Shown piece by piece: positions 5,504 through 64,000 of a DNA stretch of 64,000 nucleotides. Position 1 is the stretch's first letter. Each line of letters opens with the position of its first letter. Made by a program: the position numbers and the translations under genes. Origin of the DNA: Candidatus Nealsonbacteria bacterium (GTDB lineage: Bacteria; Patescibacteriota; Minisyncoccia; Minisyncoccales; JANBVM01); contig CP061210.1 of assembly GCA_026016225.1 (NCBI GenBank), forward strand, positions 130,000 to 193,999, written 5' to 3'. The notes beneath the pieces were generated by a model that saw only the letters and a list, made by a program, of their open reading frames with translations, was not told the DNA's origin and did not search any database.

Positions 5504-6993
5504 TGCTAAATAAAGACCAAATTAAAGAAATTATCCCTTATACAGAGCCTTTTTTATGGGTAGATGAAATAGAGAGCATCGAGGGTAACCTCATAATTGG
5601 TTATAAATATACCTCTCTGAAAGACTCTTATTTTAAGGGGCATTTTGTTGACTTTCCTATAATGCCTGGCGTATTGGTTATAGAAGGAATTGCCCAAACA
5701 GCAACTATTCTCTTAAGAAAAAAAATTGGTAAAATTCATAAACAAAAACATCTTTTAGCCCATCAGGTTAGAAGTGCTTTTTTTTATAAACCAATTTTTC
5801 CCGGGGATAAAATAAGGTATGAAGTTGAGCTTTTGGGATTTTATGGATATAAGATTGCTAATTTTAAAGGAGAAGCTTTTGTCGGAGATGAAAAAAAATG
5901 TGAAGTAAGATTTACAATTGCTGTTATAGAAAAAAAAGGATTTAAAGAAAAATACCAACAAAAAAAACAAGAAAAATCCCTACCTCAAACCAAATTGCCT
6001 CCTTTAAGAATTGGAGGACTTTTTGCAAAAATTCCAATTATTCAAGGTGGTATGGCAGTAAGAGTCTCATTGCATAATTTAGCCGGTAATGTGGCCAAAC
6101 AGGGAGCCGTAGGCATTATTGCTGTTTCTGGAATGAATAATCCTAATGAAGTTAAATCAGAAATAAAAAAAGCCAGGAAAATTGCAGGACCTAAAGGAAT
6201 TATTGGAATTAATATTATGGGAGTAGTAAGTCACTTTATTGAATTGGTAAAAGCTGCTATGGAAGAAAAAATTAATTTAGTCATCCAGGGAGCAGGATTT
6301 AGAAAAGATATCTTTGACTTGGGAGGAAAATATAATATTCCCATATTTTCAATGGCTTCTTCTGTCAGGGTTGCCAAAAAAGGAGAAGCTATGGGGGCAG
6401 AGGCAATAGTTGTTGAAGGAATGGAGGCCGGCGGTCATCTTGGTTTTCCAGAAAGTCACCCTTTTAGAAAAACAATTGATATTGTAAGAGAAGTTGTAAA
6501 AGCAGTAAAAACTCCGGTGATTGCAGCTGGAGGCATATTCAATGGAAAAGACATTGTAGAAATGTTAAGAGCGGGGGCTAAGGGAGTCCAGATGGCAACA
6601 AGGTTTGTTTCTACAAAAGAATGTGATGTTCATCAAAATTTTAAAGAGGCGCACCTGAAAGCAAAAAAAGAAGACGTTGTAATTATTCACTCTCCCGTGG
6701 GGCTTCCCGGCAGAGCAATCAAAAATACTTTGGTTGAAAAAATCTTAAAAGGGAAAGCTCCAAAACCAGACTTGAGAAAATGTCGGGGTTGTATAGGAAT
6801 GATTTGCGATAAAAGCTACTGCATCTTGGAAGTTTTAGAAAAAGCCCGTAAGGGTGACGTAGAAAATGGATTAATCTTTGCAGGTTCTAATGTCTGGAGA
6901 GTTAATAAAATAGTTTCTGTGAAAGAACTAATCCAGGAGTTAGTAAGGGAGGCTAACGAGATTTTAAAACATAAACCCTTAATGGAGTATTAA
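5500..6993 (+). CDS. FabZ-like hotdog dehydratase fused to FabK/nitronate-monooxygenase-like enoyl reductase domain
   Basis: The N-terminal roughly 140 aa carry GHFVDFPIMPGVLVIEGIAQ (FabZ/FabA signature). The C-terminal part has IIQGGMA, VVEGMEAGGHLG and AAGGI motifs of the FMN TIM-barrel FabK/NMO family. Confidence 0.7.
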   Translation: MMLNKDQIKEIIPYTEPFLWVDEIESIEGNLIIGYKYTSLKDSYFKGHFVDFPIMPGVLVIEGIAQTATILLRKKIGKIHKQKHLLAHQVRSAFFYKPIFPGDKIRYEVELLGFYGYKIANFKGEAFVGDEKKCEVRFTIAVIEKKGFKEKYQQKKQEKSLPQTKLPPLRIGGLFAKIPIIQGGMAVRVSLHNLAGNVAKQGAVGIIAVSGMNNPNEVKSEIKKARKIAGPKGIIGINIMGVVSHFIELVKAAMEEKINLVIQGAGFRKDIFDLGGKYNIPIFSMASSVRVAKKGEAMGAEAIVVEGMEAGGHLGFPESHPFRKTIDIVREVVKAVKTPVIAAGGIFNGKDIVEMLRAGAKGVQMATRFVSTKECDVHQNFKEAHLKAKKEDVVIIHSPVGLPGRAIKNTLVEKILKGKAPKPDLRKCRGCIGMICDKSYCILEVLEKARKGDVENGLIFAGSNVWRVNKIVSVKELIQELVREANEILKHKPLMEY

Positions 6994-7013
6994 AAATTAT
7001 TTTTAGAATTTTT

Positions 7014-7952
7014 ATGATAGGAACCAAACTCACCAAACTCTTAAATATTAAATATCCCATAATCCAGGGGGGGATGGCTGGAATTTCAGATTCAATTTTA
7101 GTTTCTGCTGTTTCTAATGCCGGAGGATTAGGGGTAATTGGTTCTGGTTTTCTTCCTCCAAAATGGTTAGAGGAAGAAATTAAAAAAACCAAAGAATTAA
7201 CTGATAAACCTTTTGGAGTTAATCTTTTAATGAGAAACCCGAAAGTAGCAGAATTAGCAAAAATTGTAATTCGAGAAAAAATTCCTGTTATTTTTACCGG
7301 AGGAGGAAATCCCCTTCCTTTATTTCCTCATTTAAAAAAGGTTGGTATTAAAGTTATTCCTGTAGTCGCCTTATCAAGATTAGCTAAAAAAATGGAAGAT
7401 AGCTATGCTGATGCTGTAGTAGTGGAAGGTTTTGAATCCGGAGGCCATATTGGCAGAGTGACAACAATAGCTTTGGTCCCTCAGACAAAAAAATTAATAG
7501 AAAAAATTCCTTTAATTGCTGCAGGCGGCATCTATGATGCAAAAACTGCTTTAGCTTGCTTTATCCTGGGAGCTGACGGCATTCAGATGGGCACAAGATT
7601 CTTAGTAAGCAAGGAATGTCAGATTCATGAGAATTATAAAAAAGCTGTTCTGGAAGCAACAGATGAAAATATCATCGTAGCAGCAAGGTTCACTGGTTAT
7701 CCGGTAAGAGCGATAGAAAATGAATTAACAAAAAGGGTTCAGAAGCTGGAAGAAAAAAATCCTTTCCCGGAAGAGATAAGGGCAGATAGATTCTCCAGCT
7801 CAAAAATAGAAAGCGGAAATATAGAGCAAGCTCCTCTTCTTTGCGGGCTTTGTGCTGGAGGAATTTCAAAGATAAAAAGCTGTAAAGAAATAATAGAGGA
7901 AATTATGGAAGGTTCAAAGAAAATAATAAAAGAAGTAGATAAAGATTTATAA
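7014..7952 (+). CDS. fabK: enoyl reductase II (FabK / NMO family)
   Basis: IIQGGMAGIS, VVEGFESGGHIG and AAGGIYD motifs; 312 aa. Confidence 0.75.
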   Translation: MIGTKLTKLLNIKYPIIQGGMAGISDSILVSAVSNAGGLGVIGSGFLPPKWLEEEIKKTKELTDKPFGVNLLMRNPKVAELAKIVIREKIPVIFTGGGNPLPLFPHLKKVGIKVIPVVALSRLAKKMEDSYADAVVVEGFESGGHIGRVTTIALVPQTKKLIEKIPLIAAGGIYDAKTALACFILGADGIQMGTRFLVSKECQIHENYKKAVLEATDENIIVAARFTGYPVRAIENELTKRVQKLEEKNPFPEEIRADRFSSSKIESGNIEQAPLLCGLCAGGISKIKSCKEIIEEIMEGSKKIIKEVDKDL

Positions 7953-24412: not shown

Positions 24413-24450
24413 TTTTGTTTTGGGAATTGGAAAATTCTGCTATATTAAAG

Positions 24451-24553
24451 CAATATGCCCTCTAAAGTCTTCTCAATAGCCATTGTGGGCTTGTCAACTC
24501 AAATCATTGAAATAAAAATAAATGCCTCATACGGATTGAGGCATTTTGAAATT
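24451..24553 (+). repeat. 103-bp direct repeat, copy A (comM 5' end)
   Basis: It aligns without gaps to 27964-28066 with 6 mismatches by my count. Confidence 0.9.
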
Positions 24554-24583
24554 AAGGGGTTTCTCTCGGATTTTTGTTTTTAA
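24455..24583 (+). pseudogene. orphan 5' fragment of comM/yifB (first 33 codons, then divergent tail and stop)
   Basis: It encodes MPSKVFSIAIVGLSTQIIEIKINASYGLRHFEI. The intact gene at 27968 begins MPSKVFSTAIVGLSAQIIEIETDASYGLRHFEI. Similarity ends at 24553 and a stop follows at 24581. Confidence 0.8.
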
Positions 24584-27926: not shown

Positions 27927-27963
27927 ATTCTGGATTATGCTTTAAGATTTTGTTAAACTTAAA

Positions 27964-28066
27964 CAATATGCCCTCCAAAGTCTTCTCAACAGCCATTGTG
28001 GGCTTGTCAGCTCAAATCATTGAAATAGAAACAGATGCCTCATACGGATTGAGGCATTTTGAAATT
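27964..28066 (+). repeat. 103-bp direct repeat, copy B (5' end of intact comM)
   Basis: Partner of 24451-24553. Confidence 0.9.
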
Positions 28067-29488
28067 GTGGGACTCCCTGACAAAGCAGTGCAGGAATCAA
28101 GGGAGAGAGTAGGGGCTGCGATTGAAAGCTCAGGATTTAAATCTCCTCATCGTCAGCCTGTCAGGGTTCTGGTCTCTTTAGCACCGGCTGACCTTAAAAA
28201 ACAAGGTTCATTGTACGATTTGCCAATCGCCTTAGGTTATCTTTTAGCTGACAAAAAAATTAATTTTAATCCCGGAGGAAAAATAATCTTGGGTGAATTA
28301 GCTTTAGACGGCAGATTAAGACCCGTAAAAGGTGTGATATCTTTTGCTATAGCTTGCAAAGAAAAAGGTTTTTCTGAACTAATCTTGCCAAAGGAAAATG
28401 CTAACGAAGCGAGCTTAATAAAAGGGGTAAAAGTAATTGGCATAGAAAATTTAAGAGAAACTGTTGATTATTTAGAAGGAAAAAAGGAAATTAAACCTCG
28501 AGAAATAGAAATTAAGGATTTTCTCCAACATCCTGAGTATTCAATTGATTTAGGATATATTAAAGGACAAGAGTTAAGTAAAAGAGCCCTGGAAATTGTA
28601 GCTGCCGGCGGCCATAATCTTTTAATGATAGGACCGCCCGGGGCTGGAAAAACTCTTTTAGCAAAAGCTATTCCTTCAATCCTGCCTCCTCTTTCTTTTA
28701 AAGAATCATTAGAAGTAACAAAGATTTACAGTGTAGCTGGATTATTAGCTAAAAACAAACCTTTGATTTCGCAGAGACAATTCCGCTCACCGCATCACAG
28801 TTCCTCTGAAACAGCTTTAATTGGCGGTGGAATCCCTCCGAGACCTGGCGAAATAACTTTGGCTCATCGGGGAGTTTTATTTTTAGACGAATTTCCAGAA
28901 TTCCATCGCGATGTTTTAGAATCTTTGCGTCAACCAATCGAAGAAGGTAAAATAACAATTTCAAGAGCAAGATATTCCCTGACCCTGCCTGCGCGTTTCA
29001 CCTTAGTGACTGCCTCAAACCCTTGTCCCTGCGGTTATTACAAAGACCCTGAAAGAAACTGTACCTGCACTAATTCTCAAATCCAAAAATACAAAAGAAA
29101 ACTTTCAGGTCCCTTAATGGATAGAGTTGACCTTTTTATAACTGTTCCTCAATTAAAATATGATAAATTAACGGCAGCCGATGAGGAAAATTCAAGTCTA
29201 AAAATAAGAGAAAGGGTTGCCAAAACTCGTCAAATCCAACGAGAAAGATTTAAAGCAGAAAAAACCAACTCAGAAATAAAGATTCCCCAGATAAAAAAAT
29301 ACTGCCAGGTTGATCTTGCGAGTCAAAGTCTTTTAAGAAAATATGTTGATTCTGGAAAATTATCAGCCAGGGGTTATCATCGGGTTTTAAGGGTAGCACG
29401 CACTATTGCTGATTTGGAAAACTCAGAAAAAATCAGCTATCCGCACATTTCAGAAGCCCTAATGTATAGAATAAGAGAAGATGTTTAA
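27968..29488 (+). CDS. comM: YifB/ComM-family Mg-chelatase-like AAA+ ATPase
   Basis: Lon-like N-domain (LAPADLKKQGSLYDLPIALG), Walker A GPPGAGKT, Walker B FLDEFPEF, and the C-terminal ARGYHRVLRVARTIADL block. The ATG at 27968 is preferred over the TTG at 27950. Confidence 0.9.
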   Translation: MPSKVFSTAIVGLSAQIIEIETDASYGLRHFEIVGLPDKAVQESRERVGAAIESSGFKSPHRQPVRVLVSLAPADLKKQGSLYDLPIALGYLLADKKINFNPGGKIILGELALDGRLRPVKGVISFAIACKEKGFSELILPKENANEASLIKGVKVIGIENLRETVDYLEGKKEIKPREIEIKDFLQHPEYSIDLGYIKGQELSKRALEIVAAGGHNLLMIGPPGAGKTLLAKAIPSILPPLSFKESLEVTKIYSVAGLLAKNKPLISQRQFRSPHHSSSETALIGGGIPPRPGEITLAHRGVLFLDEFPEFHRDVLESLRQPIEEGKITISRARYSLTLPARFTLVTASNPCPCGYYKDPERNCTCTNSQIQKYKRKLSGPLMDRVDLFITVPQLKYDKLTAADEENSSLKIRERVAKTRQIQRERFKAEKTNSEIKIPQIKKYCQVDLASQSLLRKYVDSGKLSARGYHRVLRVARTIADLENSEKISYPHISEALMYRIREDV

Positions 29489-60331: not shown

Positions 60332-61627
60332 ATGAAAATTTTTAATAAATTAAAAAATTTAATCAGGAAGATTCTACCTCCTTTTTTAATAAGCTGGTAC
60401 CATTTTTTATTAGCGCTTTTGGCAGCTATTATTTATTGTTTTCCCTCTTATCAAAAAAAATTGAAGGTAATTGGAATAACAGGAACGAACGGAAAATCAA
60501 CCGTGGTTAAAATGGCTTCTAAGATTTTAGAGGAAGCAGGTTTCTCGGTTGCCTATTCCTCGTCAATAAAATTTAAAATTGGAAAAAAGGAAACAGAGAA
60601 TGTTTTAAGAATGACAATGCCGGGTCGTTTTAAGATGCAAAGATTTTTAAGACAAGCTTTAAACAATAATTGTCAGTATGCTGTCTTGGAGGTAACCTCA
60701 GAAGGAATAAAGCAACATAGACATAGATTTATTGATTTTGATGTAGTTTTGTTTACTAATTTGACACCAGAACATATTGAAGCTCACGGCTCTTTTGAAA
60801 AGTATCGTGAAGCTAAAGGAAAACTTTTTAAAACTACTGGAAATATCCATATTCTAAACTTAGACGACAAAAACATTGAATATTTTTTAAAGTTTCCAGC
60901 TGAAAAGAAGTATGGATATACAATAAATTCAGAGTTAAAGATTAAAGATGAAAAAATAAAAGTAGTCAAAGCAAAGAATTGCTTAATATTAGATAAAGGG
61001 ATAAAATTTTCTGTTAACAATAGCGAAATTAATTTGAGATTACTGGGTAACTTTAATATTTATAATGCCTTAGCTTCAATTTGTGTTGGTTTGTCTCAAG
61101 GAATCGATTTAAGAACCTGTAAGTCAGCCTTAGAGAAAATAGAGGGAATTCCAGGCAGAATGGAAATAGTAATTTCAAAGCCATTTAAAGTTTTGGTTGA
61201 TTATGCTTTTACTCCTGACGCTTTAGAAAAGGTTTACCAGACAATTAAAAACAATTTTGGTTCTCAAAAAATGATATGTGTTTTAGGTGCTGCTGGCGGA
61301 GGCAGGGATAAGTGGAAAAGACCTGTTTTAGGAAAAATCGCAGCAAAGTATTGTGATAATATTATTATTACCAATGAAGATCCTTATAATGAAGACCCAA
61401 TGGAAATTATAAATCAAGTTGCAGAAGGAGCGGGATTAAAAGCAAAAAAGATATTAGATAGAAGAAAAGCAATTAGACAATCCCTAAAAGAAGCTAAGAA
61501 AGGAGACATAGTAGTCATTACAGGTAAAGGTTCTGAACCTTGTATATGTATAGCCGGAGGCAAGAAAATACCATGGGATGATAGAAAAGTAGCGAGAGAG
61601 GAATTTAAGAGATTAAAGCGATCCTAA
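60332..61627 (+). CDS. murE: Mur ligase family enzyme (MurE-like UDP-MurNAc-tripeptide synthetase)
   Basis: GITGTNGKST P-loop, the central Mur ligase domain, and C-terminal ITNEDPYNEDP. Substrate specificity cannot be inferred. Confidence 0.7.
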   Translation: MKIFNKLKNLIRKILPPFLISWYHFLLALLAAIIYCFPSYQKKLKVIGITGTNGKSTVVKMASKILEEAGFSVAYSSSIKFKIGKKETENVLRMTMPGRFKMQRFLRQALNNNCQYAVLEVTSEGIKQHRHRFIDFDVVLFTNLTPEHIEAHGSFEKYREAKGKLFKTTGNIHILNLDDKNIEYFLKFPAEKKYGYTINSELKIKDEKIKVVKAKNCLILDKGIKFSVNNSEINLRLLGNFNIYNALASICVGLSQGIDLRTCKSALEKIEGIPGRMEIVISKPFKVLVDYAFTPDALEKVYQTIKNNFGSQKMICVLGAAGGGRDKWKRPVLGKIAAKYCDNIIITNEDPYNEDPMEIINQVAEGAGLKAKKILDRRKAIRQSLKEAKKGDIVVITGKGSEPCICIAGGKKIPWDDRKVAREEFKRLKRS

Positions 61628-61748
61628 CCTACAGCATCCGAACAGCGCAACCCTCGACCTTCGGTTTCGGGGTATCCGAAAGCGCCCATCCGAAAAAAAA
61701 CACATATAATCTATTCGGAGAATTCGGATCGCTTTAAGATTTTAGAAT

Positions 61749-61817
61749 ATAGAGCTGATTAACACTACTACCTTGCCGGGTATTGTGAAATATACCTTAG
61801 CTATGCCTGACAATCAT
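61749..61817 (+). pseudogene. decayed 5' fragment of an rtcB-like gene
   Basis: It encodes IELINTTTLPGIVKYTLAMPDNH; intact RtcB at 62449 reads LEQLVNIAFLPGIVKYSLAMPDIH. Roughly four-fifths of the nucleotides match over the core (my by-eye count). A weaker, frameshifted resemblance may extend upstream to about 61670. Confidence 0.6.
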
Positions 61818-61869
61818 CATTTCTTTGTATTACCGTTTGTGTTATAATTATAGTATAATCTATGATTAT

Positions 61870-62376
61870 ATGAAAAATTCACCGGAAACATTAAGAAAAA
61901 GAAATAAATTAAAAAGAATGTGGAAGAGAAAAATAGATATAAATTCTTTTCCACATGAAATAAGGAGAAAATGTAAAGAATGCGGAAAGATAAAATTATG
62001 CCAATGGCAGCATTCTTTTACGCAAACAGGCAAGCCAGAATATAGGGCGAGGTGTAGGAATTGTCAAAAGATTTATTTGAAGAGGATTAGGAGTCAAGAG
62101 AAATATAAAAATTATAGAAATAAAAGGAGAAAAGAAATTCAAATTGAAAGAAAAAAATATGCAGTAGATAAATTGGGTGGTAAATGCGAATTGTGTGGAT
62201 ATAATAAATCTTTATCAGTACTAACGTTTCATCATAGAAACCCAAAGGGAAAAGAAAAAACCGTTGGACAAATGTTAGATTATTCACTAAAGAAACTTGA
62301 TAGAGAATTAAAAAAGTGCCAATTACTATGTTTCAATTGTCATATGGAACTACATGAAAAATTAAATGAAACATAG
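61870..62376 (+). CDS. free-standing HNH endonuclease
   Basis: CELCGYNKSLSVLTFHHRNP ... LLCFNCHMELH forms the HNH core, with additional CxxC pairs. Two TATAAT hexamers lie at 61843 and 61854. The ATG at 61870 is preferred over the TTG at 61825. Confidence 0.7.
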   Translation: MKNSPETLRKRNKLKRMWKRKIDINSFPHEIRRKCKECGKIKLCQWQHSFTQTGKPEYRARCRNCQKIYLKRIRSQEKYKNYRNKRRKEIQIERKKYAVDKLGGKCELCGYNKSLSVLTFHHRNPKGKEKTVGQMLDYSLKKLDRELKKCQLLCFNCHMELHEKLNET

Positions 62377-62448
62377 GAATACATACAAAGTTCAACTTTC
62401 AACAATTTCTCAGATAAAAAGTTGAAACAAAGATAAGTTTTTCGTTAA

Positions 62449-63888
62449 ATGATTTCTAAGAATAACTTTAAAAAAGTAAAAAATTATTTATGGGAGATTC
62501 CTAAGAGTTTTCGAGTTGGCATGAGAGTTCCAGCGCGTATTTATATTTCTGAAAAGATATGGGAACAGGTTGAAAGCAAAGCATTGGAGCAACTGGTAAA
62601 TATTGCTTTTTTGCCTGGAATTGTAAAATATTCTTTAGCTATGCCAGATATTCATACCGGCTACGGCTTTGTTATTGGTGGAGTGGCAGCCACTAAATTC
62701 CCAAATGGAGTAATTTCCCCCGGCGGAATAGGATTCGATCAGAATTGTGGGGTTAGATTGTTGAAATCAGAATATACTGAAAAAGACGTTAAATCCCATT
62801 TAGATAGATTAGCTACTGAGATACAAAAAGAAGTTCCTTCTGGTTTAGGGAGAGGCAGGAAAATAAAATTAAGCATTGAACAGATTAATAAGATTTTAGA
62901 GGGTGGAGTTTCTTATCTTGTAAAACAGGGCTATGGAGAAAAAGAAGATATTGAAAACTGTGAAGAAAGAGGAAGATTGGAACAAGCAGAGGCTTCAGTT
63001 GTTTCTGATCGAGCTAAAAACAGAGGGAGAAATCAAGTTGGGACTCTCGGATCAGGGAATCATTTTTGTGAAGTTCAAAAAGTAGACGAGATTTTTAACG
63101 AAGAAGTAGCAGAAGCATTTGGGTTATTTAAAAACCAAGTAGTGATAATGATACATACTGGTTCAAGGGGCTTGGGTCATCAAAACTGTACAGATTATTT
63201 GAGGGTAATGGCGCGAGTTATGCCCAAATACAGTATAAAATTACCAGACAGAGAACTAGCCTGTGTTCCTTTCAACTCGCCAGAAGGGCAAATATTTTTT
63301 AAAGCAATGTGCGCTGGAGCAAACTACGCCTGGGCTAATCGTCATATGATAGCTCACCATGTAAGGAAAGCTTGGAAAAAGATATTAGGAGAAAAAGAAG
63401 AACTTAGTTTGCTTTATGATGTTGCCCATAATATCGCTAAAATTGAGGAGCATGAAGTTAACGGAGAGAGAGTGAAATTAATTGTACATCGAAAGGGAGC
63501 GACAAGAGCTTTTCCTCCTCATCATCCTGAAATCCCGGAAAGATACCAAGCAGTTGGGCAGCCAGTTTTAATTCCGGGCTCAATGGGAACAGCTTCTTAT
63601 ATTTTGGCAGGGACAGAACAATCTAAGGAAACATGGCATTCTGTTTGCCATGGCGCAGGACGAATAATGTCCCGACGTCAGGCTACAAGGACAATTTCTG
63701 GGCAAGAAGTGGTGAAAGATTTAGAGCAAAAAGGGATTATTATTAAATGCCAGAGTTTGAGAGGAATTGCCGAGGAAGCCCCAATGGCCTATAAAGATAT
63801 TGATAATATTGTCCAGATAGTCCATAATGCTGGATTGTCTAAAAGAGTGGCAAAATTAAGACCACTAGCTGTTATTAAGGGAGAATAA
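62449..63888 (+). CDS. rtcB: RNA-splicing ligase RtcB
   Basis: MPDIHTGYGF, GFDQNCGVR, GSGNHF, HTGSRGLGH and HGAGR motifs; 479 aa. Confidence 0.9.
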   Translation: MISKNNFKKVKNYLWEIPKSFRVGMRVPARIYISEKIWEQVESKALEQLVNIAFLPGIVKYSLAMPDIHTGYGFVIGGVAATKFPNGVISPGGIGFDQNCGVRLLKSEYTEKDVKSHLDRLATEIQKEVPSGLGRGRKIKLSIEQINKILEGGVSYLVKQGYGEKEDIENCEERGRLEQAEASVVSDRAKNRGRNQVGTLGSGNHFCEVQKVDEIFNEEVAEAFGLFKNQVVIMIHTGSRGLGHQNCTDYLRVMARVMPKYSIKLPDRELACVPFNSPEGQIFFKAMCAGANYAWANRHMIAHHVRKAWKKILGEKEELSLLYDVAHNIAKIEEHEVNGERVKLIVHRKGATRAFPPHHPEIPERYQAVGQPVLIPGSMGTASYILAGTEQSKETWHSVCHGAGRIMSRRQATRTISGQEVVKDLEQKGIIIKCQSLRGIAEEAPMAYKDIDNIVQIVHNAGLSKRVAKLRPLAVIKGE

Positions 63889-64000
63889 CAAAAAATGTAA
63901 AATTCAAATTGCAAAATGCAGAACGAAAATTTAAAATTCAAAATTTCTAAGAAATTTTATTATTTAAATGAAAGAGAAAAGGATGCCAAAATCATTACGG

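Follow-up and report, generated by a model that had tools for sequence, protein, structure and literature searches.

What is an open reading frame (ORF) of 168 amino acids (aa) doing between murE and rtcB in a bacterium of the candidate phyla radiation (CPR), and why is it preceded by a piece of rtcB? This question is raised by a 64,000-nucleotide (nt) stretch of contig CP061210.1 from Candidatus Nealsonbacteria, which we refer to as the window and whose own coordinates are used throughout. The window is ~98-99% identical to CP179892.1. On the + strand of the window, murE is followed by a GC-rich stretch, an RtcB-like frame ending at 61817, the 168-aa ORF and an intact rtcB gene at 62449-63888 (Table 1). 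According to an initial annotation, an older rtcB was entered, at the PDxH His codon, by a cassette with an HNH endonuclease gene and its own rtcB 5' segment, after which the former 5' end decayed. Our analysis supports this proposal, and we consider it quite probable that 61818-62655 is an rtcB-specific free-standing homing-endonuclease cassette that replaced the 5' end of its target gene. This conclusion is supported by empty sites in relatives, by a mosaic rtcB, by a remnant that is nearest to the clade of the gene body and by 13 clusters in which the arrangement recurs. In the best reading, the cassette consists of a promoter, the gene of a 168-aa zinc-ribbon/HNH nuclease, a short spacer and the replacement codons 1-69 of rtcB.

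The rtcB fragment and the protein encoded next to it

The intact rtcB starts at a new ATG at 62449, and its product matches the Pfam profile PF01139 over positions 1-426 of 426 (E=3.5e-175; 583.8 bits at a cut-off of 27). When the window RtcB was compared with the whole window by tblastn, the sole significant second match was 61752-61817, which corresponds to aa 48-69 with 15 of 22 residues identical (E=5.6e-5). A hidden Markov model (HMM) of RtcB residues 1-69, derived from 116 relatives with the window's own protein left out, matched just the intact gene and 61752-61817 (26.2 bits, profile positions 48-69). The translation of 61749-61817 reads IELINTTTLPGIVKYTLAMPDNH, and its RtcB-like character, as claimed earlier, is thus borne out by both searches. 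On the DNA level, the two copies form a direct repeat of 63 nt (61755-61817 and 62593-62655, 75% identical) with a spacing of 838 nt. Both terminate at the His codon of the PDxH motif, precisely where the initial annotation had seen the similarity stop (61817 and 62655). The interval holds what had been described for it, namely two TATAAT hexamers (61843-61848 and 61854-61859, the first within TGtTATAAT at 61840-61848), the 168-aa ORF and the new rtcB start. A simple promoter scan flagged no + strand site in 61818-61869.

A weak resemblance to RtcB had also been reported further upstream in a different frame (YPKAPIRKK...IIYSEN). Here, the RtcB profile remained blank: searched in all frames with filters off, 61628-61751 gave no match even at E<=100. 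Local DNA alignments of 61611-61751 to seven rtcB 5' ends mostly stayed within the range of shuffled sequences, with a marginal excess for L008 (z=2.5; 15/500 shuffles) and L012 (z=1.8; 32/500); L-numbers denote contigs or loci of the relatives compared and P-numbers the RtcB relatives compared. As neither the profile nor the DNA alignment was significant, we dropped this upstream similarity, while the remnant, the end of the repeat and the content of the interval stand as first described.

With its 22 codons the remnant is short, and it is preceded by sequence without RtcB-like character, as might be expected of a chance match or of a conserved regulatory element. It was, however, significant in two tests (tblastn and profile HMM), equivalent and longer fragments exist at other loci, and it is absent from relatives, where a different conserved spacer occurs. 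These results effectively refute such an origin, to which we assign practically no probability. Group I and group II introns as well as inteins were ruled out, since an Rfam search of 61000-64000 (E<=10) returned noise alone, with no intron, riboswitch or known small RNA, and since RtcB is colinear with the PF01139 profile without insertion.

For the 168-aa ORF we found 102 homologs of 165-200 aa, most of them unnamed and one bearing the source name 'McrA'. A Pfam search of the window ORF gave no match, and no Pfam domain in the 102 homologs covers the part that matches it. Alignment of the family revealed an N-terminal CxxC...CxxC zinc ribbon and a C-terminal F-H-H ... CxxC ... C-x-N-C-H motif. 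Across 44 homologs, C35/C38/C62/C65, C106/C109, F120, H122 and C154/N156/C157/H158 are invariant and H121 is nearly so; the residues of an HNH motif with flanking CxxC zinc ligands are present in these 44 homologs. The Pfam HNH model matches 13 of the 44 family members, weakly (best E=0.0027), and a profile search against PDB sequences aligned CDLLCFNCHxELH of the protein with CxALCPNCHRELH of McrA as a marginal match. A structural model of the protein was obtained with AlphaFold2 at a mean predicted local distance difference test score (pLDDT) of 95.6. Its top Foldseek matches were all HNH nucleases (Cap5, Gme HNH, T4 EndoVII and Cas9), with weak scores (best E 0.026). Furthermore, the C-terminal ~70 residues (aa 97-167) are 51% identical to phage genes (tblastn E=7e-15), and one among the top phage matches is annotated as an HNH endonuclease. 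Judging from these comparisons, we accept the 168-aa protein as an HNH nuclease with predicted activity. The same protein sequence is encoded in 7 contigs that derive from different samples.

Empty sites, a mosaic rtcB and strain diversity

Comparison of the murE-rtcB junction with HNH-less relatives, as the initial annotation had suggested, revealed empty sites. The window and L001-L007 have the HNH gene, whereas L008-L012, L142 and L143 lack it, and the locus is therefore polymorphic for the insert. L008-L010, L142 and L143 represent the nearest lineage as judged by RtcB (89-90%) and MurE (73-76%), and show murE, a conserved AT-rich spacer of 140-186 nt and then rtcB. In the more distant L011 and L012 (RtcB 77% identical), murE overlaps the start of rtcB by 17 nt. 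The assumption that the ancestral rtcB began just after murE thus agrees with L011 and L012, but not with the gap found in the nearest clade.

Moreover, rtcB itself proved to be a mosaic. Compared with L008, 62 mismatches fall into nt 1-270 (77% identity) and 71 into the remaining 1170 nt (94%). Codons 1-69 share 71% aa and 78% nt identity with L008, versus 93% downstream of this segment. Maximum-likelihood change points were found at nt 270 (L008), 288 (L142), 279 (L143) and 228 (L145), with log-likelihood gains of 24-56 across the four relatives. The last nucleotide of the His codon is nt 207, and the change points lie 21-81 nt beyond it; within nt 208-270, 14 of the 16 mismatches to L008 are at third codon positions. 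Among 116 relatives, four are 92.5-94.6% identical to the window RtcB over aa 91-479 (hereafter the gene-body clade). These reach only 69-76% over aa 1-90, a region in which no relative exceeds 80%.

A slow evolution of RtcB might have produced the L008-like body. At third codon positions, rtcB matches L008 with an identity of 0.61 over aa 1-90 and of 0.90 over aa 91-479, compared with 0.59 for murE, 0.68 for holA and 0.66 for nif3. The control pairs L008-L143 and L011-L012 show no such contrast, with similar third-position identities for rtcB and murE. Thus, rtcB is not intrinsically slow, and this explanation was ruled out. The high identity to L008 stops near the rtcB stop codon. We infer that an L008-like donor supplied the rtcB body by horizontal transfer, in the simplest case through a long co-conversion tract, and that the functional 5' end, together with ~20-80 nt, arrived with the cassette from elsewhere. 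We also considered that the first 270 nt of rtcB might be vertical and the body alone foreign; the background divergence of the remnant (see below) and the recurrence of the architecture favour the cassette instead.

If the functional 5' end came with the cassette, the remnant should represent what it displaced. Among 117 sequences, the remnant peptide best matches P0106 and P0107, two of the four members of the gene-body clade, together with P0202 (19 of 22 aa), and it matches the window's own RtcB less well (15 of 22 aa). The same contrast is small in DNA, with 51 versus 48 matches over 66 nt. DNA identity of the remnant is 73-77% to three of the four clade members and 64% to L145, which equals the genome background, unlike the 94% of the gene body. 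These comparisons point to the remnant as the native 5' end of rtcB.

The locus also stands out in its diversity among conspecific strains. The window differs from L001, L002 and L004 by 1.6-2.7% upstream of 61600, but by 3 mismatches only from 61601 to the window end. Between L001 and L002 there are 0 mismatches over ~2.5 kb (L001 9751-12250), a tract that begins at the 3' end of murE and reaches ~230 nt beyond the rtcB stop codon. Both flanks of this tract carry 12-13 mismatches per 250 nt, and flank divergence ranges overall from 1.5 to 5%. Because the tract is near-invariant while its flanks diverge, the strain comparison indicates a very recent spread or sweep of the unit formed by hairpin element, remnant, HNH gene and rtcB.

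Recurrence of the arrangement and further features of the locus

Public genomes and metagenomes were searched using both the family alignment and its specific N-terminal domain; the resulting 37 clusters at >=90% HNH identity are not independent samples. The full-alignment scan, with its generic CxxLLCFNC pattern, gave mostly unrelated HNH C-terminal domains, and only L013-L015 were informative. An rtcB gene lies immediately downstream on the same strand in 26 of the 30 clusters having at least 400 nt of downstream sequence. In two more, rtcB follows with in-frame TGA codons (L138) or as a truncated 5' fragment (L014). Furthermore, an upstream rtcB 5' fragment is kept in 13 of the 34 clusters with upstream DNA; at other loci, these fragments measure up to 46-65 aa. 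Most of them end at the same PDxH His codon, 20-74 nt before the HNH ATG, while those of L015, L094 and L137 are decayed there. The left ends of 20-74 nt that follow the His codon at other loci bear TTGACA/TGnTATAAT-like motifs. L104 holds a young duplicate pair (91% identical), and in L098, L102, L106, L127 and L128 the functional copy clearly belongs to another sequence type than the fragment.

These pairs also bear on the possibility that the 5' region of rtcB was tandemly duplicated in situ and that an unrelated HNH gene came later to lie between the copies, in a cassette without an rtcB segment. The copies are direct repeats in the same orientation, and the similarity of the L104 pair would agree with such an event. 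In the window, however, the functional 5' copy and the remnant are not sisters: no relative shares more than 80% identity with the functional copy, the body reaches 93-95%, and the remnant resembles the body's relatives. Moreover, the divergent tract extends 21-81 nt beyond the end of the repeat, and the five clusters with clearly different sequence types do not fit a duplication. L014 (an Actinomycetota metagenome-assembled genome, 6001-6751) contains a full-length HNH homolog and then an rtcB 5' fragment that ends nine codons before the PDxH His, with no rtcB body within 6 kb. Such an HNH gene and rtcB 5' fragment without a body also speaks against a tandem duplication, which we hold to be very unlikely. 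L014 may represent either a cassette without a target or a deletion.

Full-length HNH homologs were found in Cytophagales, Blastocatellia, Actinomycetota and CPR hosts. In L138 (5001-6714), an HNH homolog and a downstream rtcB have in-frame TGA codons at conserved positions (e.g. PD*HL*IG), which suggests that the host uses genetic code 25 or 4; the HNH family therefore reaches recoded lineages. L131 (4189-6542) carries a family member of 57% identity among phage- or plasmid-like genes, away from any rtcB, and may indicate a phage reservoir of the family. Across loci, the HNH proteins are 45-70% identical, whereas the RtcBs linked to them fall into two subfamilies sharing only ~30% identity. 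The HNH protein of the window is 70% identical to that of L096, where RtcB is ~37% identical, and 67% to that of L094, where RtcB is 76% identical. Thus, the relationships of the HNH element are discordant with those of its target.

The strict adjacency of HNH gene and rtcB across phyla and RtcB subfamilies might also be expected if the HNH protein acted together with RtcB or regulated it within a conserved operon of the two genes, and if the fragments were scars left where the whole operon had replaced a resident rtcB by horizontal transfer, without site-specific cleavage. The clusters without a detectable remnant (21 of 34) and an HNH ORF that is intact and identical in all conspecific contigs would be in line with this explanation. 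Against it, close relatives do without the HNH gene at the same locus, the similarity of the HNH proteins does not follow the RtcB type, and the homolog of L131 occurs in its phage-like context without rtcB. Random recombination scars would also not mostly stop at one His codon across lineages, and the C-terminal domain of the HNH protein is nearest to free-standing HNH genes of phages. We therefore regard an operon as improbable and retain the homing cassette.

Gene-end replacement is typical of site-specific integration as well, and the HNH gene could be cargo of an integrase-type island whose attachment site restored the gene end. In the same window, a 3.4-kb insert flanked by a 5' duplicate of comM would lend itself to this interpretation. 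At rtcB, however, the insert measures only 838 nt and contains, besides the rtcB segment, one ORF that is not a recombinase. The repeats are 75% identical and not identical attachment-site cores, and the HNH gene itself is constant across loci. The probability that we attach to an island is accordingly very slight.

The initial annotation had drawn a parallel between the rtcB cassette and comM. The comM 5' duplicate does exist: 24437-24562 encodes 42 codons with 76% aa identity and one in-frame stop, 3.4 kb upstream of intact comM (27950-29488). The parallel does not extend to the insert, which comprises a 130-aa ORF without Pfam match and an 817-aa TraG/VirD4/HerA-like ATPase and in which no nuclease or recombinase was detected. 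The comM case thus shares the outline of gene-end replacement, but probably represents a different kind of element.

The GC-rich element between murE and the remnant is 143 nt in length and reaches a GC content of 0.49 compared with ~0.3 nearby. It is closed by a stem formed from an inverted repeat (61606-61627 and 61723-61744, 82% complementary with a 12-nt perfect core), in which the last 22 nt of murE pair with their inverted copy. Its predicted fold has a minimum free energy of -38.6 kcal/mol (z=-3.6), and 0 of 200 shuffles were equally stable. The element occupies the position of the murE-rtcB spacer and of the ~140 nt with which the old rtcB began, and it alters the last murE codons. Its left arm, formed by the last ~25 nt of murE, also marks where the low-diversity tract begins. 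None of L008, L142, L143 and L145 has a corresponding element, and it shows no Rfam match and no second copy within the window. This element could be filler from break repair, an insertion resembling a miniature inverted-repeat transposable element (MITE) or an RNA element.

Two further differences were seen in the neighbourhood. In L008 (2472-4430), uvrB lies between rpsT and murE, where the window, L011 and L012 have rpsT followed directly by murE, representing a local rearrangement. Between 57253 and 58934, the window and the identical L003 have an HhH-GPD glycosylase gene and a 200-aa ORF; the matching region of L001/L002 (~6157-7059) has an Fpg/Nei glycosylase gene instead. One DNA glycosylase appears to have been exchanged for another between strains.

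Table 1 Features of the murE-rtcB locus in window coordinates.
Feature	Coordinates	Strand	Basis
murE	60332..61627	+	Pfam Mur_ligase_M and Mur_ligase_C
Low-diversity tract among conspecific strains, continuing beyond the window end	61601..64000	unstranded	strain comparison
GC-rich hairpin-closed element	61604..61746	+	inverted repeat, fold stability, GC content
Psi-rtcB, probable displaced native 5' fragment (codons 48-69)	61752..61817	+	tblastn, HMM, direct repeat
Cassette left end, promoter-like	61818..61869	+	read directly from the sequence
Free-standing HNH endonuclease gene (predicted), 168 aa, zinc ribbon and HNH	61870..62376	+	homologs, model, phage match
Spacer, HNH stop codon to new rtcB start	62377..62448	+	small hairpin (inverted repeat) at 62397-62427
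Putative replacement rtcB 5' segment (codons 1-69), fused in frame to the gene body	62449..62655	+	divergence contrast
Probable co-conversion tract beyond the insertion point	62656..62718	+	maximum-likelihood change points
rtcB body	62719..63888	+	anomalously near the L008 clade

A proposed mechanism and related homing elements

With these observations at hand, we propose how the cassette might have entered rtcB. The nuclease would cut cassette-free rtcB near its PDxH/GYGF codons, and the break would be repaired from a cassette-bearing copy. During repair, the right end of the cassette would pair with the rtcB body and the left end with the upstream rtcB fragment of the donor. The cassette would be copied in directly after the His codon, and the recipient's own 5' end would be displaced upstream as a new pseudogene fragment (61752-61817). 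From then on, rtcB would be read from the cassette promoter and the cassette 5' segment, which together with ~20-80 nt of co-converted flank would presumably confer resistance to cutting. In the window, the rtcB body would also have come from a relative of L008, most simply in one long co-conversion tract, and the whole ~2.5-kb unit would have spread very recently among strains. Later, the GC-rich hairpin element may have replaced the distal part of the old 5' end.

Two sets of features recommend this mechanism. As for homing endonuclease genes (HEGs), presence/absence polymorphism is found at one homologous site, and the flanking target is a mosaic. As for gene-end replacement, the carried gene end has a separate history, and the displaced end is kept and lies nearer to relatives. 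A contrast in the PDxH motif moreover gives a hint of target-site resistance: MPDxH is kept in the displaced fragments of 11 of the 13 clusters, whereas ~19 of 26 linked functional rtcB genes have SPD, LPD, MSD, MAD, MGD, NAD or CPD in place of MPD.

Several observations weigh against the homing cassette. The replacement segment of the window keeps the canonical AMPDIH and is nearly identical to cassette-free alleles 5' of the His codon. Since the replacement copy retains AMPDIH, resistance, if any, probably lies in the 21 recoded codons after the His, which makes 62656-62718 a candidate site of both nuclease recognition and resistance polymorphisms. Apart from the phage match, the sequence and structure scores behind the HNH assignment are weak. 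Neither a cassette-free conspecific strain nor a cassette-bearing, L008-like donor was found; a look-up of MurE matched the identical contig alone, and an exact look-up of the window RtcB gave no match. A selective sweep without relation to the nuclease could also account for the low-diversity tract. With no remnant in 21 of the 34 clusters with upstream DNA, the remnant-less lineages may inherit the HNH-rtcB pair stably, or the host may benefit from it. Furthermore, the simple model explains only in part the chimeric fragments of L094 (26-177), L109 (1914-2044), L110 (876-1040) and L132 (350-501). In these, host-type codons 1-30 are followed, with codons ~31-48 missing, by PFAF...IMPDTH typical of the other RtcB subfamily, which fits a donor fragment moving with the cassette.

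Beyond the window, we see an even chance that such cassettes form a widespread and undescribed class of bacterial homing elements, which use neither introns nor inteins and swap the 5' end, and with it the promoter, of a target gene with an essential motif. The upstream fragment would serve as left homology arm, resistance would come from a recoded M-P-D or from the next ~20 codons, and homing would drag whole rtcB genes between lineages. The latter would explain both the foreign rtcB body and the near-zero diversity of the unit. A literature search of incomplete coverage found no HNH-rtcB element and no bacterial homing element that replaces a gene end; we do not assert priority.

If this interpretation is true, a bacterial HNH element that replaces 5' ends and brings its own promoter would mean that the gene-end strategy arose independently in prokaryotes. 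It would also name a function for an unannotated protein family with ~100 known members, and provide a very small (168 aa) natural site-specific nuclease with the RtcB PDxH/GYGF codons as candidate target. Moreover, it would reveal a route by which housekeeping genes are exchanged between CPR lineages, which matters for gene trees of reduced genomes.

According to the usual view, homing endonuclease genes can persist within genes only by means of introns or inteins. Endonucleases encoded in these elements target the codons of conserved catalytic motifs in housekeeping genes, and the function of the gene is kept. The rtcB cassette would share both traits, but it has no splicing element, and function would be preserved through duplication of the gene end. 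In T4-like phages, small intergenic genes (mobE, segs) encode free-standing homing endonucleases of the HNH and GIY-YIG types, which cut a neighbouring conserved gene in HEG-less genomes, with co-conversion of the flanks. The rtcB cassette resembles these elements in its HNH protein, with its C-terminal domain 51% identical to phage HNH genes. To our knowledge, however, the phage elements sit between intact genes, with neither a duplicate gene end nor a truncated target fragment.

Replacement of gene ends is known from organelles. Mobile open reading frames (mORFs) replace the C-termini of atp6 in Allomyces macrogynus and of atp6, atp9, cox2 and nad3 in Glomus (PMC3630166). There, the insertion brings in an endonuclease ORF along with a foreign version of the gene end, and the displaced native end is nearer to that of close relatives (PMC3630166). 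The rtcB remnant likewise is nearer to relatives than the carried copy. However, mORFs are organellar, encode LAGLIDADG or GIY-YIG enzymes and act on the 3' end, with the ORF often fused in frame, whereas the ORF of the rtcB cassette is separate and lies upstream.

The WHO elements of Torulaspora and Lachancea sit beside their target FBA1, outside introns and inteins (Coughlan et al. 2020, eLife; PMC7282813). Their integration replaces the 3' end of FBA1 with a resistant carried copy; the displaced end stays as a non-coding fragment that acts as homology arm, and the target becomes a chimera whose parts have discordant histories (PMC7282813). The nuclease is an intein-derived LAGLIDADG/zinc-finger protein of a nuclear, eukaryotic element that homes in meiosis, and cleavage has been shown experimentally (PMC7282813). 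In the same manner, the rtcB cassette adjoins its target, replaces a gene end, strands a fragment and leaves a chimeric gene. It differs from the nuclear WHO elements, with their 3' ends and experimental cleavage, in being bacterial, in its small zinc-ribbon/HNH protein with predicted activity and in its use of the 5' end. Because the 5' end is replaced, the rtcB cassette must supply a promoter and a start codon, and in place of meiotic homing its transfer must use horizontal DNA exchange. Taken together, our comparison suggests that the WHO elements of yeasts and the mitochondrial mORFs are the closest known systems and that the rtcB cassette, which recurs in several bacterial phyla, would be a bacterial counterpart of the WHO elements.

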